Shown piece after piece: positions 45,901 to 56,986 of a DNA stretch of 64,000 bases (position 1 is the first letter of the stretch; each line of letters opens with the position of its first letter). The translations under genes and the position numbers were made by a program. The stretch lies in contig CT868085.1 in NCBI GenBank assembly GCA_000165425.1, forward strand, positions 186,001-250,000, given 5' to 3'. This stretch comes from Paramecium tetraurelia (taxonomy: Eukaryota). The notes beneath the pieces were generated by a model that saw nothing but the letters and a program-made list of their open reading frames with translations, had not been told where the DNA came from and did no database searches.

Positions 45901-48900
45901 GATCAGATCATTGCTTTTAATTTTGGAGATAGAAATAGCTGATAATTAGATAGCAGTATCTGAAAATAGCAATTTTTAGTTTAAGCATTCATTTTCCTCA
46001 ACATTATCCTCTTCATCCTCCTTTATAAAACTTGGAATGTCTGAAATGGCTTTTGAATTGCACTACATGTAAATTATTTTTTGAGAGATTGTATTCTAAA
46101 CAATCTCACATAGCCCATTTTATTTTTCAACCTACATAACATTATTGAAAGAGATAATTTTAATTAAAATTACTGTAGACAGATCTAATTAGATTAAATA
46201 ATAAATATACCTTCCCTTGGCTATATTAGAATAATATTATTTTAAGGAGCAGTGCCTCCTAAAATTGTGATTTTATTCAAAATTACATCCCCTTAATCTA
46301 CACCTTCCAAAATAGATTCTCTAAAGATGTTGTCAATAAGAATGTCTTTTAAGATTAGAACTGTATTTTCAACATAGATAGACACAAAATTATTGATATC
46401 CAATAATGCTTTCTAATTATTTATTAAATGTTTCATGTAATTAAAAAGAGCATCTTTTTGATTTTTAATAATTATCTTTTAAAGTTATATCACATTTTAT
46501 AATGAGTTTTTTTAGAAAGCTGCATGAATAACAGAACCTTTTCTAGATATACATTCTGATAGAGTCAAGTTATTAATTGACAAGTTTAGTTGATCTTAAT
46601 TAGAAGAGACAAATAAAAAGCTTCCGTAATCTTTCGCCAAAATATTTTATGCCACTATGTCTTAGATTTCTACTTTACATCCACTAATTGGGATCTTAAT
46701 AAAGATGCACCCTCCATTTTCTTCATTGTATTTAAAGAATGTAGTTAAATTCTTGAATGTTATATTGAACAATTTAATAATTTATCCACTAATGTACAAT
46801 CCAATTCCATTCAACCCTTATGAATTCTCCACTTGACTATTTTGTACAACTACAACATCGGCTTCAAGGTAGGAATTTCCGTATGCATTCTAAAAATCAA
46901 AGATGGATTTTAAGTCATTCTGATATATAATCTAACTTAGAGGGTATTGCCAATCAATATTGTTTATAAGGATTTCGATATTCTAATAGGAATTATTAAC
47001 GAATTAAACTTAATCTAACATAATTTATTCAGAAATAATATTTATGACACTGTCAGTAGTGTTGGTTGCAAAATTATCATAAATTTAGTTGTTTTTTAAA
47101 TTAATTATTCCTGATGGACAATAGATTAGCAAAGCAACAGATGAAGCCTTTAATAAATTTTTTTAATAGTTGTGCAATTGATTTTACTTGATTTCAACCA
47201 TTTCAACATTTACAATAATTTTTTAATTAGATGTGATGGATATTAAAGAAGCACTTGCATCTTTTTATGATGTAATTAATAAGTTATCTTTTATTATAAA
47301 ATATTTGATTGAAAGTGCATCTTAATCTGAGGATGAAGTTTTTGATTGAGTTGTGAATAATAGAAAACCAGAATTAATAAAGTTCATTCGAGTTATAATA
47401 AAATTCTCCAATTTAGTATTCCTAACATCAAATAGTTAAATTAAACTAGGGAATTTATTGTTAGCTTTAATTATACTAGAACAATCATAATACTAGTGTA
47501 ATAACAGTATTTAAGATTAGGTAGCTATCAGGTCTGTAAATATAAGTGATTATAAATTAGTAAATATAAATTCCTATATGCCAAACCCTCTAATGATTTT
47601 GCATGTTGATACTATGGCCTATTGTAATTGAATATATATTAAGTATGATTGCAACTGGTTATATGCTGATTATTATTTCTCGTCTATCATTACTTATTCT
47701 AAAAAGATATTTTTAATTGTGATTTCAGATGTTATTGAATCGAAGGCTTAGAAGTATAAAATTTCAGTTTCATAACTGGAAATCAAATTTTTAACTTTCA
47801 GATTGTCAATTGAGTATATGAAGGTGATTTATTTTGATATTTAATTTTCAACCTAATTACGAATAAATGAGACTGATCCATAAGAGTGACAATCAGATAT
47901 CAATAATTAATTAATTGAGCCTGATCTTTCAAGTTATAAAAATGTTGAATCAATGATTACTAAATCCACTAATTCAATATTTTCAATGTTCGTTGATAAA
48001 GCATAATTTAATAAGAAAAATGGCTCTGAGTTTTCTAACTTTCCTTATATAATAAAATTGGCTACAGTTATTGATTACAATATTTAATCATTTTATGTGT
48101 TCAACAATGAACTATTCTTGAATACAGAGTTAATGCTAATATGTTTAAAATTAATAGATTAAATATCAGTGGATTTGAATTCTAAGATATTAGTATTCTC
48201 AAAAATGCTATGTTCAAATAAAAAATTCTCTATTTAAATAGAGGAGGTTTTTGAAATAGTATCATAAAAAAATGAAAAAAGACTTTTTTGGTTTTTATTT
48301 TTAATATTCATATTTCTAAGGATCACCTAACTAAAGACTATTTCATTCAATTGGGTGCACTAAAAGCTAAAAAAAGTAGAGGTTGTTAAGGAAGTTGTTG
48401 ATATTACTATCTTGTATAATTGCAATTCAATGGATTTAAAGCCATATGCATTGATATTCTTATTATAAATGTTTGATTAAATCATAAATTGTACATTTTC
48501 AAAACGTAATAAAGTAAAATCAATAAAGTGTAATTCTTCAAAAATAGTTATTTACAATTCTTTTTCAATATTAGACTTTATAGTTAATTGAACATCGCTA
48601 GATATAGTAAAATATATTACATAGCTTGAAACACATTTTTAGAGAAGGCTTAAGTTATATAACTTAATTAAGGAACCTAACAAACTTATTCACTTTTGGA
48701 TACAAGAATCAATTTGACTTTCTTAATTATCTTTTTGCTCATAATGCTGTAGATGGCATCAATATCAAACTAAATGGATATCATAAAATATTACTATTTA
48801 AAAGCTGTTTCCCTAAACATTATATTATAATAATTGTGAAAACATAACATTTTCTTTCTTAAATTTATTTTTTAAATCTATGTCTTAGATTAATTCTAAT

Positions 48901-51900
48901 TAAGCAAGGTAATCTTCATCATTACAAAATAAATTTAATTCCAAAGTTACAACATTCTCACATGGCTCTGAATTCTAACATGATATAAATTATCCTAGGA
49001 TACTATCATAAAACAAAGTTTCATCATTCTAATATGGTTTTAAACATTAATAAGTTTAAATAGCATTGATATCAGTTTTAATGAACAGAGAATTAATGCT
49101 TTGAATTTCTTCATTTGTTCTTTCCCTGCAAAGTTCACAGTAACTAGGACAACCAGTACATTAATTTTATACTAGACTTAATAGATTATGATAGATATTC
49201 TGACCACATGTTTAGCATGTATATTGACCATCTAAATAAATGCAACTTTAACAACTGTCATCACAATACTTAATGCATTTGTTATCTCTTAAAATATAAC
49301 CCGTGTAACAAGATGTGCATATTATTTCATAATCATCTAAATTTTAGCTTTAATCCTAGCTCCAGTACTATTAAATAATAAATTTATTTATTTTACAAAA
49401 TAGAAAAGATCAAAGGAAGAGTGTAGAAACTGGACAAGGGATATTAAATTGTTCTTCCATTCATCATTATATCCGATAGTCGAATGATAACATGTTTTAC
49501 AATGTAGATTTTCTGGACATAATTAACATTAACCAGTTAATCGAGTAGAATAATATCCTTATTGACATTTCAAACAGTAGGCATTTGTCTTCTGTTTTTT
49601 AGTATAACACCAAAAACAATTCTACAATTGAGTATTGCAAAAATCTCCTTCAACACTGAAGCCACTTGAATATGGTGATTTAAAACAAATATTTTGGTAG
49701 CCGTAATCAACTCCAAGATAAACAAATTTGTAATAATATGCAATTGAACATTAATAGTCAATTACATCAAAAGGATCACAAGTACTTTACTGATAATTGT
49801 ATATAAAACCGTCTTAACATAATCCACAAATTGGTTTCTCATCTGATAAGTTATTAGAAGGTTAGAAATTATAAATAATAGCATTGTAAAAATAATTAGC
49901 CTAGGAGACTAAAACCACATTTTAGCAATTAGGAATATCTATTATTTTGCAATCCACTCCGTTGAATCGAATAGCCATTATTTTGTTATCAACACATGTT
50001 AAGCACCTTAAAAAATATTCTTAGGTTTGGATATTAAAATCTTCTCTGCAAAATTGACAATAGATTCCACAAGGCTAACATTATCCCAAATGGTTTACAG
50101 TATATTATCTATATAATCAATTGATAAATACGATTGACAAGTTAGACATTAGTATCCTATATTACTATCAGGGTTATTTTAACATGTTTTGCATTCCTTA
50201 GGACATGGCAAACACATCTTCTCTTAAAAATTGAAAAAGTAATTTTCAATACAGGTTAAACAAACGTCTTTAGATTGACATACAATGCATGATTGAATAC
50301 AATTTAAACATTAAAGGTTATCGTAATATCTATTGGTTTTACATTTCATTCTTATTTATACACCTAAATGAAATTCATTACTATATTAACATTCCAAGTT
50401 AAGTTGCTTCACAAAATTCACTGGGCTCCTTCTAATAATTATAAATTTCTAATCTTTATTGATGAANNNNNNNNNNNNNNNNNNNNNNNNNNNNNNNNNN
50501 NNNNNNNNNNNNNNNNNNNNNNNNNNNNNNNNNNNNNNNNNNNNNNNNNNNNNNNNNNNNNNNNNNNNNNNNNNNNNNNNNNNNNNNNNNNNNNNNNNNN
50601 NNNNNNNNNNNNNNNNNNNNNNNNNNNNNNNNNNNNNNNNNNNNNNNNNNNNNNNNNNNNNNNNNNNNNNNNNNNNNNNNNNNNNNNNNNNNNNNNNNNN
50701 NNNNNNNNNNNNNNNNNNNNNNNNNNNNNNNNNNNNNNNNNNNNNNNNNNNNNNNNNNNNNNNNNNNNNNNNNNNNNNNNNNNNNNNNNNNNNNNNNNNN
50801 NNNNNNNNNNNNNNNNNNNNNNNNNNNNNNNNNNNNNNNNNNNNNNNNNNNNNNNNNNNNNNNNNNNNNNNNNNNNNNNNNNNNNNNNNNNNNNNNNNNN
50901 NNNNNNNNNNNNNNNNNNNNNNNNNNNNNNNNNNNNNNNNNNNNNNNNNNNNNNNNNNNNNNNNNNNNNNNNNNNNNNNNNNNNNNNNNNNNNNNNNNNN
51001 NNNNNNNNNNNNNNNNNNNNNNNNNNNNNNNNNNNNNNNNNNNNNNNNNNNNNNNNNNNNNNNNNNNNNNNNNNNNNNNNNNNNNNNNNNNNNNNNNNNN
51101 NNNNNNNNNNNNNNNNNNNNNNNNNNNNNNNNNNNNNNNNNNNNNNNNNNNNNNNNNNNNNNNNNNNNNNNNNNNNNNNNNNNNCATCTTCTATCGGACC
51201 ACTAATATAATAAAACTCTTTTGTTTGTACTCTGCTTCTAGGTATGCCATTTTCAGCTCTCAATTACATGACCAAAATGATTAAATTTCCTGAATATTAA
51301 GTATTATAATTGTATGTTCCTAAATAATAAACTAATGGCTCTTCATTCATAAAATAAAGCCTCAATTACATTAAAGCTCCATCCTTAGGAGTTCTACCTT
51401 AATCAACGACAAAATAGTGCCATTCTTAGGTTTTCTCATAGAAATTATCTTTTTTTATAGACAAAGTATCATATTTTCTCAATTCTTCATCCTAATATAG
51501 TGGAACTCCAAAAGGGATCTTATAAAACTAAGCATTAAGATGAATTACTGTTTCGTTATTGTTTTCAAAGTCAACCTTTTATTTTCATAAATAAATACTG
51601 CATAATAAAAGTCAAGCAATATATCTCCCTATTTTTTATTTGTTACATAAAATAAGTTATACATAATAAAAATTGATTGTTCTAATTGATAATACGACAG
51701 ACCATAATTTTTCTAATAATATGTGAATGCCTATTAATTAATAAATTCATACCTCGAAATAATTTTGCTTGACCCATCCTCTAATTGTATATCTTTAATT
51801 GTAGGAAAATAATTGAAAATTTAAGATTTCAAAATCATTCTTCGACAGATTTGGGTCTAATACTCTGAATAAATCAAAATTAAGTATGGTATTTTTCTAA

Positions 51901-52631
51901 TTCTAAAATGGGCATTTTTAAAATAAATTCTCAAAGAAGTTGTCATCATAAAAGAAAGGATTGTATTCTTATATAGTAGAGAGTAGTCCCTTATAATGTA
52001 GTAAAGGATTCCAATTATATACAAAGTTTTAGGAAAGATCTGTAAGGTATCCTCCTAAAATAATGGTAATTTTTTCTGATAATAACTAATATTCAAAAGT
52101 AAAGAGCTAATCATTGAAGTTTGTGTAAAATCTAATGACATGGTCGACAGATGAATATAGGATTGAAGTATAGAACCAATGATTCTCATATTTACTTGCC
52201 TAAAATTGAACTGATGCATGCTGGATAATATCAGAATTTTATTTAAACAAATAAAAATCGTGAGTTAAGCTAATTGGATTATCATTCATATTTAATATTA
52301 TTGCTGCAAAATTAAATTCATCATCATCAAGCAGCTTTAAAAAGTAGAATCCATTAAATTGACAAACTTCAAATTAACAATTAGGATCGTCAAAAGGTTT
52401 ATAAAAGATTTCTAATTCCGAATTAATCTAGTTAGAAATGTATTTTGACCAAAAGCCAAACCCTCGTGAATTACCAGAGATTGAATCAGTTTATATTTCT
52501 ATCTATTTTATTTAAGGCTTTTATTAGCTTTATTCTAAGTTTGTATCATCATCTTCATAATAACATGTGATATCATTTTGTAATTAGCTCAATGAGATTT
52601 AGGTTATCCAAAGTAAAATGAAGAAAATCAT
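42930..52631 (-). CDS. Giant (~3000 aa) surface/membrane protein: signal peptide, LamG-like region, Cys-rich furin-like repeats, pectin-lyase-like beta-helix, C-terminal multi-TM domain; 3' end approximate, interrupted by an assembly gap
   Basis: MIFFILLWITQISLS start; many CxxxCxxC repeats (~49100-50300); GGAIYF/GGCIFI/FxxN repeats (~45400-46750); GYWRP..CLGGW..CYEGHIGALCEQCD; LGYLYYEYKPNAYFWEIIK TM region. Confidence 0.85.
50467..51184. other. Assembly gap (718 N)
   Basis: Run of N characters. Confidence 1.
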
Positions 52632-53211
52632 AAATTAATTTTTTTAAATATGATGCAATTAAATTATTAGTATTTGAAGTATTAAACTTTCTAACTTTTT
52701 GATTATGTCTTATTTACAGATAAGAGATATAAATCAAGAAGTGAATTAACATAAAGCATTTATAAATAAAGAAATCCAATTCGTTTAATTTTGAACTATT
52801 TAAGTCTACAATATTAATATTTTTGGTTTCTTTTTTAAATATATTAAAATTAGAGAAGAAATTTAATCTTTTTTCTCTTATAGATTCATATTTAAAATTA
52901 TTTTATAGTTCTTATAATAATTTCATAATTTTTAAAACACAGCTTAACTTAGTTAAATTATATCATTAAATGTTAATAATTTACACTACATGACTAATCA
53001 GTTTTCAGTTAATAAATAAAATAGGAATTCATTATTGATTTGTATTTCATTTATCTTATACTTTTAAATATTGTATTTACAATTAAGTATAGTGAATTTC
53101 ATGAAATTAAGAGAAGAAATTAAACAAAAATTTTAGAAGAACTTTTCTATTTTATCATTAAAACTAGAATTACTTTATTTATGTTTAGAAAATAATTTAT
53201 CATAAATATTA

Positions 53212-54612
53212 ATGATGAAAGTAATAAGCAGGATGTCTTCATTAATTCTTAAGAAATCTGATGACATGGTTCTTTTTGCACATGACAATCCAATTAAATT
53301 AGGCGAGACATTAAAGTTCGGAAATTCATTAGGAGTAGTCATGTCAATTTTTGAAAGAAATCAATTAGCATTATTGTTATAACAATCTGAAGTATTAGAG
53401 CCTATCTAGCCTGTTAATTCATTAATGCCATATCCACAAAATGAAATCTGTACGATTGCAGACATAAAGGAATCAAATGAAAATACTGCTGATAGCAAAA
53501 AATTACCAAAAAGAACTCTTCCATAGAGTTAAATTTTATCACATAATGTGTATATCGATCTCTTTCATCCAATAACTTATGGACAAATGCTCATCATTAA
53601 AGATAAGGAACTTTTGAATAAATTGCAAGCCTTTGATCAGATTATTTATTATGGCAAATCTCCAATCAAGTAAGCAACTTGGTTTAAATATGCAGATAAT
53701 TAAGGTTCAAATTACTACTTACCAAGATATGCATTACAATACGCCAAAGAAAAAGCGAAAACTCTTAAAACTTTGTTAGTAATGGATCAAATTTATGATC
53801 ATTGTGTTGCGCATTAAAAATTATAAGAGACAATTCAATCATATGTTTATGAAAGAACCACTAAAACTGTGTACTTGTCTAATCTATTGAAAGATCTCTC
53901 AGAATCCTGTGGATACAGACCAGGACATAGCAATCTTACTGTTGCTGTTTTGCAAAAAGATTCGAAAGATGACTTATTAAACGATGAGTTGGAGAAAGAA
54001 GTATTATTTAAATGTATTTCAACCATTAGCTAGAATCCTTGTAATCTCATACTCCTACACAAAGCATATCTAAGCCAAGTCCATTCAGTTTGTAAATTCA
54101 AAGTCCATTGTATTATCATTTAGCCTAAGAATTATACAATATTATAGCATAACACAACGAAAAAAAATCAGAATACTTATAAAAGCAATAGTTAAAGATT
54201 CATATTGATCCTTGGGACTTTTATCAATATTTTGATTGCAAACCAATAGTGTAAATGATCAACTTATTCAACCAGTAGAATGGCTAAGAACACGAGTTAG
54301 TAATCCTAGTCGATTTCTCGGTTAAGGCATTCAAAGAAGAATTGATTTGTCAACTCAAAGGTATGTCTATGAGTGCCTATATTTTCAGGTTCCCCTAAGG
54401 AAATTTTGGATGATCTTCTCGGATTCTCTTGTTAAATAAAGGAGTTTGATGGAAAGACATTTGCTGAATTTTATTATGAGAAGAAGAATGAATTAGATGG
54501 AACTGAATTCAAGAATGTAATAAATGAAAGCTTAGGAAGATTTTATGAGTTATACATGCTTCATTTAAGAATGACAGATTAATTGTTATAATACAAAAAG
54601 GATTACATATGA
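53212..54612 (+). CDS. Highly divergent F1-ATPase alpha-subunit-like protein lacking Walker A (~447 aa)
   Basis: IDLFHPITYGQMLII vs F1-alpha VDSLVPIGRGQRELII; NYYLPRYA..TLLVMDQIYDH vs QYLAPYS..ALIIYDDLSKQ; introns 54001-54029 and 54361-54388. Confidence 0.7.
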
Positions 54613-54792
54613 GTGAGTATTGGCATGTATTTTTATTAAGACATATAATAATTAAATTCAAATAGAAATTACTCAAAATTATAAAAGTTACATCTGCAGA
54701 ACAATATCAATAAAGATTATCTTTGTTGTTCTGATAACGTATGACCATATGATAAGTTAATTTATATTTATTTATATAAAAATTACCCATAA

Positions 54793-56986
54793 ATGTTTGA
54801 TAATCGTACTTCTTATTTTAATGTTTAAGGGAATAAAGCGAGCTTTAAGTAGAATATCAAGCTGTTTCAATCATTAAGGGCAAAATTATAGTAAGCAAAA
54901 TCAAAATCCAAAGAACCAATTAGGGGATAACTGAAAACATTGAAAAGATTTGAAGATGTTATTGATGAACCCTAGATGCAATAAAGAGCTGTAACAACTT
55001 AAAAGAAATTGACTCATTTAATTGAGGAATAAGAATAAAGACAAGAGGAGATAAACCCAATGAGATACAACCTAATGTAATTACTTGTATTGATGGGAAA
55101 AAAGGAACATTATTTTGATAAATTAGGCAAAGATGAATTCAAATTAATAAGAGTAGGTTAAAGATCAAAGGAGAGTGTGGATGAGCACATTTAAAAAATT
55201 AAAAAATTTTTAAGCAATAAAGTTCGTTATAAGTATAGAACTAGTTTTAAAATGCAATGTATAAAAATAAATATTTTATCAAGTCTAAATTTAACTAGAT
55301 CTTTTGAAGTATGTCCCAAAGAAAAAATCAATGACAATTAAAAATAGTCAAAGAGATTATGAGATAGATGAAGATGAGGACACTTCTAAGAAGAAAAAAA
55401 TAAGTGCAAGAGGTTACTAAGATTTTTCGAATTGGAAGAAAAAGAACAATGTTGCATAAAATCAAAAAGTTTTTATTATAACAAATGGGTATCATGCTTT
55501 ACGAGATTCTTTATTAGAGAGAAATTGGGCAGAGAATGAGGATGCATATAGTCCATTCTTTGATCTAAAATGGACTTGTGGATTAAGAAGTGATGACTTT
55601 TTAAATTTGATGGACTTTTAACAAATCAATCATTTCGATTCCAATCAATGTCTTTGTTCCAAATTTGGTTTGGCTAGAAATATGAGATGTATACCTAATT
55701 GGGAATCATTTTTTCCTAGGTGTTACGATTTAGGTGACTTAGTTGATTTTTCTGACTTTATAGAAGACTTCAAAATTTCGAAAATCCATAGTATATTAAT
55801 GGAATTTGATTAGAATTAATCTATCAATTAGAATAAGAAAGTACTACCAGAACCTCATGAAGAGACCGAACATAAAAATACATTACGATTAAAGGATTTT
55901 AAAAATATTACAATAAGAGCAATGGAAGAGAAACCTTAGACATTCATAATAAATTTTAGAGAAAGATTCAAAATTCGTTTGTGCATAATGATTTTAAATA
56001 GAGTGGTTTGTTCATTAGGTAGTATGGTCAAAAATATACTGAAAGATGAATTTCCATTTGTTCATCCTGGAGAATGGTTGCAATTGATGAGGGATCCTGA
56101 AAATGCTAAAGATGTATAGATTAATGAATAAATTGAAATGATTCTGAAAGCAAATGGATATGAAGACTAAGAAGGAGATAAATTCATATAAAAATATGGT
56201 TCTTAAATTAAAGATTTGTTAAAATAATTAAACAGAAATCCTTAGAATTCATTGCAAGGTACAAGAAATATTTGGATTGTAAAGCCTGAATATTCATCAA
56301 GAGGAAGAGGAATTAAATGTTTAGATGATCTAAATTAGATTCTGGACACTGTAAATAAAGAAACTATGAATTATGTAGCCATGAAGTACATAGAAAACCC
56401 TTTGATAATTAAGAATAGAAAGTTCGATATTCGTCAATGGGTCTTGGTTACTGAGTTGGTTCCACTCAAAATATATTTTTACAATGAATGTTATATAAGA
56501 TTTTCAGCAGAAGAATTTGACATTGATTAATTTCAAAACAAGTTTGCTCATCTTACTAATAATGCTATTGCAAAGCATTCTTAAAAGTTTTATGAATCAG
56601 ACATTAAAGGCAATATGTGGACTTAGGAGGAATTTCAACAATACTTAGTTGAATAATATGGTTGGGATGTCTTTGCAGAGAAAATACAATCTAAACTTAA
56701 GGAGATTGTTGTTAACAGTTTAAAATGCTGTTGTGATTAGATGAAAAATAGGAGAAGATCTTTTGAAGTATATGGTTATGACTTCATGATTGATGAGCAA
56801 TTTAATACTTGGTTGATTGAAGTCAATATGTCACCTTCAAGTGATACGACAACTCCAGTGACAGCTTAAATAATACCTAAAATGTTAGAAGACATTATGA
56901 AAGTAGTTGTAGACAATCAGAGCAAGACAAAAAAGAAAGTTGGAGGATTTCAATTGATTTATAATAGTGATACTAAATTATAATGA
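54793..56986 (+). CDS. TTLL3: Tubulin-tyrosine-ligase-like protein, TTLL3/glycylase type
   Basis: [93 protein letters not shown]. Confidence 0.9.

Follow-up and report, generated by a model that had tools for sequence, protein, structure and literature searches.

The Gene and Its Coding Sequence

The window analysed here is a stretch of 64,000 nucleotides (nt) of Paramecium tetraurelia DNA (assembly GCA_000165425.1, contig CT868085.1, positions 186,001–250,000). Its subject is a plus-strand gene at window positions 53212–54612, which has two introns and encodes a protein of 447 amino acids followed by a TGA stop codon. The databases label this protein "uncharacterized" and assign it no domain. 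As argued below, the gene is probably an expressed, conserved and very divergent duplicate-derived copy of the alpha subunit of F1-ATPase (F1 alpha), serving as a non-catalytic scaffold in Paramecium.

The window is AT-rich, and it is open for reading in the ciliate genetic code (table 6) only, three frames being joined into one gene. The spliced coding sequence of 1344 nt uses 16 TAA and 4 TAG codons in frame as sense codons, and TGA does not occur internally. Each of the 447 residues is identical to its counterpart in residues 38–484 of the P. tetraurelia protein GSPATT00007749001 (XP_001438011.1; A0CIJ7; here P0007), and this identity, together with splicing in silico, bears out the intact two-intron gene of about 447 amino acids described in the first-pass annotation, whose quoted motif strings are likewise present in the sequence. 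Exon 1 (53212–54000, +) encodes residues 1–263, comprising the N-terminal domain and most of a degenerate nucleotide-binding domain (NBD); it is open in the ciliate code, is covered by RNA, and is 93% identical across 263 amino acids to the 447-residue P. octaurelia protein P0001. Intron 1 (54001–54029, +) is 29 nt long with GTA..TAG ends; its splicing is seen in RNA reads, and 447-residue orthologue models concur. Exon 2 (54030–54360, +) encodes residues 264–373 and the first base of codon 374, which make up a linker and the initial half of the C-terminal helical domain. Removal of intron 2 (54361–54388, +; 28 nt, GT..AG) is required for the frame, and orthologous proteins read ..QLKGSPKE.. 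over the junction. Exon 3 (54389–54612, +) encodes residues 374–447 and the TGA, forming the second half of the C-terminal domain with its conserved end LLQYKKDYI. This end does not qualify as a C-terminal di-lysine (KKxx) retrieval signal, since its lysines lie at −4/−5 rather than −3/−4.

The database model P0007 (484 amino acids) begins 37 codons upstream, at an ATG at 53101. This annotated N-terminal extension (53101–53211) is probably wrong, because RNA depth is zero in 53050–53167 and the 447-residue orthologues begin at the position corresponding to 53212.

Expression and Conservation in Paramecium

Two stranded oligo-dT RNA-seq runs with the same organism label give 155 and 184 reads over 53050–54800. 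All of these reads have the first mate on the minus strand, corresponding to plus-strand RNA, the strand of the gene, and depth is restricted to 53168–54642 with flanking bins at zero. In three reads, position 54030 directly follows the final nine bases of exon 1 (GAGAAAGAA), evidence that intron 1 is spliced. RNA support for intron 2 is a dip in depth (about 1.5 in bin 54348–54406 versus 5–7 alongside), to which the 447-residue orthologue models can be added. Loose read ends at 54075 (7 and 19 reads in the two runs) continue as sequence of the ohnologue, and therefore both ohnologues are transcribed. Many RNA reads also mismatch the window at 53528, 53539, 54107, 54225 and 54248; these are most simply explained as reads from the second copy (GSPATT00021459001 type) that cross-map.

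The protein is strongly conserved among aurelia species. Of 363 candidates in a search with exon 1, four reach E ≤ 0.01; each is a Paramecium protein of 447 amino acids, and identities are 83–93%. Sequence clusters hold 447-residue copies from P. octaurelia, P. primaurelia, P. pentaurelia and P. sonneborni as well as the P. tetraurelia ohnologue, most species having two, along with the 484-residue model P0007 and two short fragments. Nine 447-residue proteins from five aurelia species align without a gap over 447 columns at a mean column identity of 92%, and the window's own P. tetraurelia copy (P0007) brings the total to six species. Identity between the window protein and its P. tetraurelia ohnologue (P0011) amounts to 87.7%. 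Both ohnologues are retained in several aurelia species. The gene thus encodes a real, expressed protein that, to judge from these alignments, is under purifying selection. Pseudogene status, which lack of expression would have suggested, is excluded for practical purposes because the frame is intact and indel-free in many copies and the RNA is strand-specific and spliced.

Homology to F1 Alpha Through Ciliate Relatives

The likeness to F1 alpha can be taken beyond chance because intermediate homologues and a structure model supply the link. A profile built from Paramecium sequences only, in an exhaustive HMMER search of 1.84 billion representative proteins, gives 23 matches at E ≤ 1e-3. Ten of these 23 relatives were scanned with Pfam: P0022 (549 amino acids) matches PF00006 (ATP-synt_ab) with an E-value of 1.7e-14 and 54.4 bits (cut-off 29.5), P0015 matches it weakly (0.048), and the other eight, all fragments, have no PF00006 match. 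The Paramecium protein is connected to P0022 by BLASTP in two ways. Residues 168–446 of P0001 align with P0015 (6e-21) in a match that includes the Walker-B-strand region, and residues 51–344 of P0015 align with residues 246–549 of P0022 (1e-23), in a region that overlaps the match to PF00006. P0014, which is closely related to the Paramecium protein's N-terminal half, aligns over residues 3–128 with residues 111–228 of P0022 (4e-5), spanning the P-loop region. In hhalign, the direct link between the Paramecium profile and the P0022 group lies in the C-terminal domain only (315–447 versus 420–550, E 7.7e-12).

Profiles that include the relatives reach known structures. A family profile of 13 sequences (A2) gives 85 matches at E ≤ 1 in the PDB, and the best 60 of the 85 are all rotary-ATPase subunits. 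NeqB of N. equitans heads these matches (9.9e-8), its alignment starting at profile position 26 and thus taking in the N-terminal domain, and F1 alpha comes next at about 1e-4. With the P0022 group left out (profile A8), there are three PDB matches at E ≤ 10, all alpha-type (G1-ATPase alpha, 0.025; F1 alpha, 0.25 and 0.39). All three fall on the Walker B stretch, where TLLVMDQIYDH (residues 187–197; 53770–53802, +) would be the counterpart of the alpha Walker B strand and the DDLSKQ segment that follows it, a placement drawn from A8 and from the BLASTP alignment to P0015.

The family extends to an environmental metagenome. A scan with alignment A5 and LKIHIDPWD as the search pattern returned 17 pattern matches, one of which was confirmed: contig L002 carries an intron-bearing homologue in the ciliate code (tblastn 2e-10, 42% identity over residues 287–447). 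Its exon 3, the NBD exon, taken alone against the PDB gives 48 matches at E ≤ 10, namely 47 alpha-type chains (best 2.5e-4) and one unrelated diterpene synthase, and it scores 22.3 bits (1.1e-4) on PF00006; exon 1 of L002 has no PDB match at E ≤ 10 and no Pfam match. Alignment A7, used below, omits this exon 1, which MAFFT misplaced in A6, as well as the near-duplicates P0006, P0036, P0037, P0039 and P0040 and the short fragments P0013, P0019, P0020, P0024, P0027 and P0029–P0034. The L002 gene has one long intron (1280–1590 of the contig) filled by a tandem repeat of about 10 bases (tttttattga), and its frame continues beyond the conserved ..KRDYF end through TAA codons; stop usage in the L002 organism may differ from that in Paramecium.

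The nassophorean ciliate Pseudomicrothorax dubius contributes one member of the family. Word-indexed searches add little: P0022 retrieves only itself and P0035, and the 26-sequence alignment A4 retrieves only Paramecium proteins and short fragments. On present sequences, the Paramecium gene belongs to a small family that has to date been encountered in ciliates alone, a membership that is new relative to the first-pass annotation, as are the P-loop kept in relatives and the conservation of the C-terminal domain (see below). In the ESM Atlas, whose scores serve as leads only, the clusters nearest P0035 (0.90–0.93) are ATP-synthase clusters named alpha. Three eukaryotic clusters among those near P0035 are named "putative F0F1 ATP synthase subunit alpha" (0.91–0.93; 548–728 amino acids) and come from green algae and diatoms. 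Nearly all of their members have PF00006; two of the three have no other common Pfam domain, and the third has PF00306 in about half of its members. These clusters may be further alpha-like paralogues outside ciliates.

Decay of the P-Loop and Conservation of the C-Terminal Domain

The segment IDLFHPITYGQ (residues 115–125; 53554–53586, +) is placed by hhalign and the family profile as the counterpart of the strand-loop VDsmiPIGRGQ that precedes Walker A in F1 alpha. Shortly downstream, KDKELLNK (residues 130–137; 53599–53622, +) is the remnant at the Walker A (P-loop) position and has no GxxxxGK[ST]; in the alignment it sits where Escherichia coli AtpA has GDRQTGKT, in agreement with the replacement proposed earlier. 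In all eight Paramecium rows of A7 these columns read K(D/N)KELL(N/K)K, with neither a glycine-rich loop nor GK[ST], and in close relatives they read TKDESLLRH, FHNRTYLKK and MENEDLLGR. The motif is half-kept in P0022 (GKSHTGKF) and P0035 (GKYGTGKF). In L002, one exon ends in ..GEPSTG and the next starts with KS.. after an inferred 47-nt GT..AG intron, giving a canonical GEPSTGKS. Because other members keep an intact or half-intact P-loop, its loss appears to be specific to the Paramecium branch of the family. An N-terminal ..GAGKS.. in P0015 was not counted as a P-loop; two alignments place it differently, and it may reflect a mis-called start.

Losses elsewhere in the NBD accompany that of Walker A. 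The Paramecium protein is without about 25–30 NBD residues that are present in P0022 and L002 between the P-loop helix and the next strands. The RRPPGREA.PGD segment after Walker B and the ..SVSRVG segment around the arginine finger, which we take, with the earlier annotation, to be alpha-defining motifs, face QETIQSYVYERTTK and TPTQCLSKPSPFS, respectively, in the Paramecium protein when it is aligned to E. coli AtpA. Neither has a counterpart there, so the loss of both motifs claimed in the first-pass annotation stands. Its further claim that this is not the working alpha subunit is likewise sustained, with Walker A erased, the alpha motifs gone and the protein very divergent.

Conservation is distributed unevenly along the protein: identity to P0022 is 25% in the C-terminal domain, 20% in the N-terminal part and 18% in the NBD. 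The C-terminal domain holds the signature LKIHIDPWD (residues 318–326; 54192–54218, +), of which L318, I320, H321, D323, P324 and W325 are invariant in the seven-sequence alignment A5, and a conserved ..KKDY terminus. The C-terminal helical domain therefore appears to be the best conserved part across the family.

Predicted Structure

A first AlphaFold run with nine near-identical Paramecium sequences gave a mean predicted local distance difference test (pLDDT) score of 34.8 and was unusable. The model considered here is based on an alignment of 24 family sequences, which included the PF00006-bearing relatives and no F1, V1 or FliI sequence, and has a mean pLDDT of 60.2. Residues 121–250 have pLDDT 52–77 except for short stretches (including 210–222 and 235–239) below 50, and the C-terminal domain reaches 80–97 over residues 290–440, the last block (441–447) averaging 71.

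Foldseek against the PDB gives 75 matches at E ≤ 1e-3 with F-type ATP synthase chains in the top rows, led by 2r9v (4e-5, probability 1.00, 376 columns), then 8dbs_A and 1fx0_A, chains that are named alpha in the profile searches; the Tetrahymena ATP synthase entry 6yny is also matched (3.2e-4). A second structure search (VIA) likewise puts F1 alpha on top, in an alignment that reaches model residue 433. Identity in the structure alignments to F1 alpha is 12–15%, and the structure comparison also names SsaN, Rho, FliI and G1-ATPase. In the model, a RecA-like alpha/beta middle domain superposes on rotary and type III secretion system (T3SS) ATPases. The middle domain is thus predicted to be RecA/F1-like, and the predicted match to alpha continues through the helical C-terminal domain.

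Taken together, the profiles of the relatives and the structure searches agree with the first-pass proposal of a full-length, collinear, very divergent relative of the rotary-ATPase alpha/beta family. Within that family, the nearest known subfamily would be F1 alpha, to judge from L002 exon 3 (47/48), A8 (3/3) and the top matches of both Foldseek and VIA. The protein is accordingly filed here under the alpha/beta superfamily with alpha nearest, and not as an F1 alpha.

Weighing the Assignment to F1 Alpha

Several results weigh against this assignment, the first of them from the Paramecium sequence taken by itself. Neither the window exons nor P0001, P0003 and P0007 have a PF00006 match at E ≤ 10 (Pfam cut-off 29.5 bits), the Pfam result being chimallin only, at chance level (E 0.03–0.09). 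P0001 has no NCBIfam match at E ≤ 1, and the Paramecium-only profile (A1) has no PDB match at E ≤ 10. A single Paramecium sequence run with phmmer against the PDB gives eight weak matches, all IL-6 receptor chains (E 0.01–0.46) and taken as chance, with no ATPase among them, and the Pfam scans of Paramecium proteins and scanned relatives contain no PF02874, PF00306 or PF22919 match. In an ESM Atlas feature search with P0001, again a lead only, the first match is an unnamed bacterial cluster (0.84), and ATP-synt_ab clusters score 0.79–0.82, under the lead level of 0.9. The Paramecium protein by itself is thus without a significant ATPase match, and the link to F1 alpha is transitive. The collinear alignment to F1 alpha made by eye in the first-pass annotation fares accordingly: its placement is recovered by hhalign, which aligns residues 108–153 of the Paramecium-only profile with residues 146–192 of E. 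coli AtpA, the expected place, but at E 0.051, and with no Pfam or PDB match, it has no significance on its own. Likewise, the match to the rotary-ATPase fold fails with the Paramecium sequence alone but is obtained via the ciliate relatives and the structure model.

The choice of alpha within the superfamily meets its own difficulties. With A7, hhalign against single E. coli proteins gives AtpD 1.4e-4, AtpA 5.4e-4, FliI 2.8e-3 and Rho 0.19, and with A3 it gives FliI 7e-5 and AtpA 3.5e-4; in neither case is alpha separated. The best PDB match of A2 is NeqB and not F1 alpha. In NCBIfam, P0022 matches models of V-type B, of the T3SS ATPase and of F1 alpha alike, all far under the cut-offs. On the equivalog model TIGR00962 (atpA; cut-off 484 bits), P0022 scores 17.4, P0035 16.6 and P0015 18.6 bits, and on the V-type B model (cut-off 349 bits) P0022 scores 27.1 and P0035 18.1 bits, P0001 having no match to either; membership of neither is indicated.

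The structural and comparative evidence has weak points of the same kind. The predicted template modelling (pTM) score of the model is moderate (0.41). Residues 1–121 have pLDDT below 35, and the model lends no support to an N-terminal barrel; support for the N-terminal domain comes from the profile alignment to NeqB from position 26 and from predicted strands at residues 12–42, where pLDDT is also below 35. Foldseek TM-scores are about 0.23 with a root-mean-square deviation of about 20 Å for two-domain matches, because the domains of the model are not packed as in F1. The predicted fold is in part dependent on the sequence result, because the alignment behind the model contained PF00006-bearing relatives, and the intact Walker A read in L002 depends on the inferred splice. 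No homologues in Tetrahymena or outside ciliates turned up, nor any named non-ciliate source, in searches that cannot show absence. Homology and loss of the P-loop are solid.

Proposed Role and Alternative Explanations

The protein would have descended from a duplicate of the alpha (non-catalytic) subunit of F1-ATPase. In the Paramecium lineage, the NBD would then have decayed, with Walker A turned into KDKELLNK, about 25–30 core residues deleted and the arginine-finger motifs gone, and because of these losses the protein could hardly bind or hydrolyse ATP canonically. It would act as a nucleotide-blind scaffold or adaptor with an F1-alpha-shaped body, making protein–protein contacts via the conserved C-terminal helical domain, the likeliest mode because this domain is the best conserved across the family; it would not be one of the three alpha subunits in the working F1 head. 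Such a non-catalytic scaffold role is moderately probable on the sequence evidence. A mitochondrial location, suggested by the ancestry and by the acid-free, basic N-termini, is somewhat short of probable, and a link to ATP synthase assembly or regulation is unlikely.

The N-termini in question are those of four family members and are acid-free, basic and Ser-rich over 15 residues in Paramecium, 34 in P0022 and in P0035, and 23 in the L002 gene. The 15 residues of the Paramecium protein (MMKVISRMSSLILKK; 53212–53256, +) contain four basic and no acidic residues and may be a short mitochondrial presequence. They are compatible with a genuine component of the ATP synthase of Paramecium, be it an alpha isoform in an alpha position, a peripheral F1-associated subunit or a dedicated factor that imitates alpha towards beta in assembling or holding F1, and F1 alpha as the nearest known subfamily and the retention of both ohnologues in several aurelia species point the same way. 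Such a component is nevertheless rather unlikely, since both Walker A and the alpha motifs of the catalytic interface have been lost and the NBD is reduced in length. In the available part of the source, the mass-spectrometry list for the Tetrahymena ATP synthase names a single F1 alpha (PMC2903591). Among the best 60 of the 85 PDB matches of A2 there are only ordinary alpha, beta or B chains, and no chain of a solved ciliate complex except ordinary alpha is matched, either among the listed PDB matches of this profile or by Foldseek. A structural protein of F1-alpha-like ancestry that resides outside mitochondria, in the cytosol, the cortex or the cilia, would fit a basic stretch of only 15 residues in Paramecium, and the divergent PF00006-only "alpha" clusters of green algae and diatoms (0.91–0.93) hint at wider alpha-like paralogues; with four family members sharing acid-free, basic, Ser-rich N-termini and a presumed ancestor that was a matrix protein, this too is unlikely.

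Retained nucleotide use and simple decay bracket the scaffold role on either side. B subunits of the V/A type bind nucleotide even though they have no canonical P-loop, the relatives keep GxxxxGK, and the Walker-B-like strand with its Asp (TLLVMDQ) is kept in Paramecium, so that an NTPase or nucleotide sensor with a non-canonical site is conceivable; it is very unlikely given that all eight Paramecium rows have no glycine-rich loop or GK[ST], that a deletion has removed the helix and strand following the P-loop, and that there is no arginine-finger segment. A decaying relic, a mis-annotated pseudogene or a chance likeness to F1 alpha would explain why no family is matched significantly by the Paramecium sequence alone and why the first AlphaFold run scored so poorly (34.8). 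This explanation can be all but set aside in view of the strand-specific, spliced expression, the intact 447-residue frame that is indel-free in nine further aurelia proteins, the chain of E-values from 1e-23 to 4e-5 with PF00006 at 1.7e-14 in P0022, and the two structure searches that both put F1 alpha on top.

The preferred explanation therefore remains the scaffold derived from F1 alpha. In an extended and distinctly tentative form, it would make the ciliate proteins a second ciliate family derived from F1 alpha that works outside ATP synthase, in a different and probably mitochondrial assembly; the P-loop would decay in the series GEPSTGKS, GKSHTGKF and KDKELLNK, and Paramecium would be the end point, a pure scaffold in which only the C-terminal interaction domain is kept. 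Were the green-algal and diatom "alpha" clusters with PF00006 alone to prove related, the family would amount to a widespread eukaryotic alpha-like paralogue that has been overlooked.

Neighbouring Features of the Window

The downstream neighbour at 55094–56983 (+) encodes a tubulin-tyrosine ligase family domain (PF03133, 2.1e-70) and has no evident connection to the F1-alpha-like gene. Upstream lie large open frames at 48485–50116 (−) and 45906–48689 (−), one of which is rich in Cys-x-x-Cys repeats and neither of which matches Pfam at E ≤ 1e-3. A run of about 700 N at approximately 50466–51170 is an assembly gap and accounts for the very low guanine–cytosine content of the 50001–52000 bin.

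Significance and Comparison With Known Systems

So far as we are aware, the rotary-ATPase alpha/beta family is normally taken to be represented in eukaryotes by its F1 and V1 members only. An expressed paralogue derived from alpha, retained in duplicate after the whole-genome duplications of Paramecium and without a nucleotide site, would be a new case of a pseudo-enzyme in a highly conserved protein family, and relatives with an intact, half-intact and erased P-loop would form a comparative series for the fate of an alpha-type subunit once nucleotide binding becomes dispensable. Should the protein prove to have a part in the assembly of ATP synthase or the architecture of cristae in ciliates, it would have implications for the construction of their unusual ATP synthases. 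A family profile made from a few ciliate sequences would mend the "uncharacterized" database label. The literature, supplementary proteome tables being outside the scope of the search, yielded no paper with the GSPATT or UniProt identifiers and none on a ciliate alpha-like paralogue or on cryo-electron microscopy of the Paramecium ATP synthase.

F1 alpha itself (AtpA; ATP5F1A/Atp1; PF02874, PF00006 and PF00306) probably has in common with the Paramecium protein the order of a strand-rich N-terminal region, a RecA-like middle and a helical C-terminal domain (the N-terminal barrel being unsupported by the model), and it shares with it a collinear TG..ID...PI..GQ segment, a Y.lP..AL..A helix and a (L/V)L(V/I).D strand. 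The Paramecium protein differs in having no Walker A, RRPPGRE or arginine-finger segments and an NBD shorter by about 25–30 residues; it has 447 amino acids, whereas E. coli AtpA has 513, and Tetrahymena alpha has 546 (PMC2903591). In addition, the ciliate C-terminal domain is family-specific, without a Pfam match, and scores lie far under the cut-off of every alpha model.

Among the closest known proteins is the P-loop-poor A/V-type B subunit NeqB (NEQ263; Nanoarchaeum equitans; 5bn3_B), and a truncated P-loop in a B subunit is described in one report (10.64898/2026.10.01.756066). B subunits are, however, stoichiometric components of a working A3B3 head, whereas the ciliate protein has no known catalytic partner or rotor. 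Psy3–Csm2 (3vu9), a pair of nucleotide-blind RecA-fold paralogues, offers an analogy of mechanism only; it belongs to another branch of the RecA superfamily, the Rad51 paralogues, and is without N- or C-terminal domains of the F1 type. The F1-like ATPases of mycoplasmas (MSC_0618/0619 type; the gliding G1-ATPase of Mycoplasma mobile, 9io5) are the closest precedents for alpha/beta paralogues outside ATP synthase. Unlike the ciliate protein, whose scores fall far under the model cut-offs, these ATPases are bacterial and operon-encoded, have a beta-like catalytic partner, and are catalytically active.

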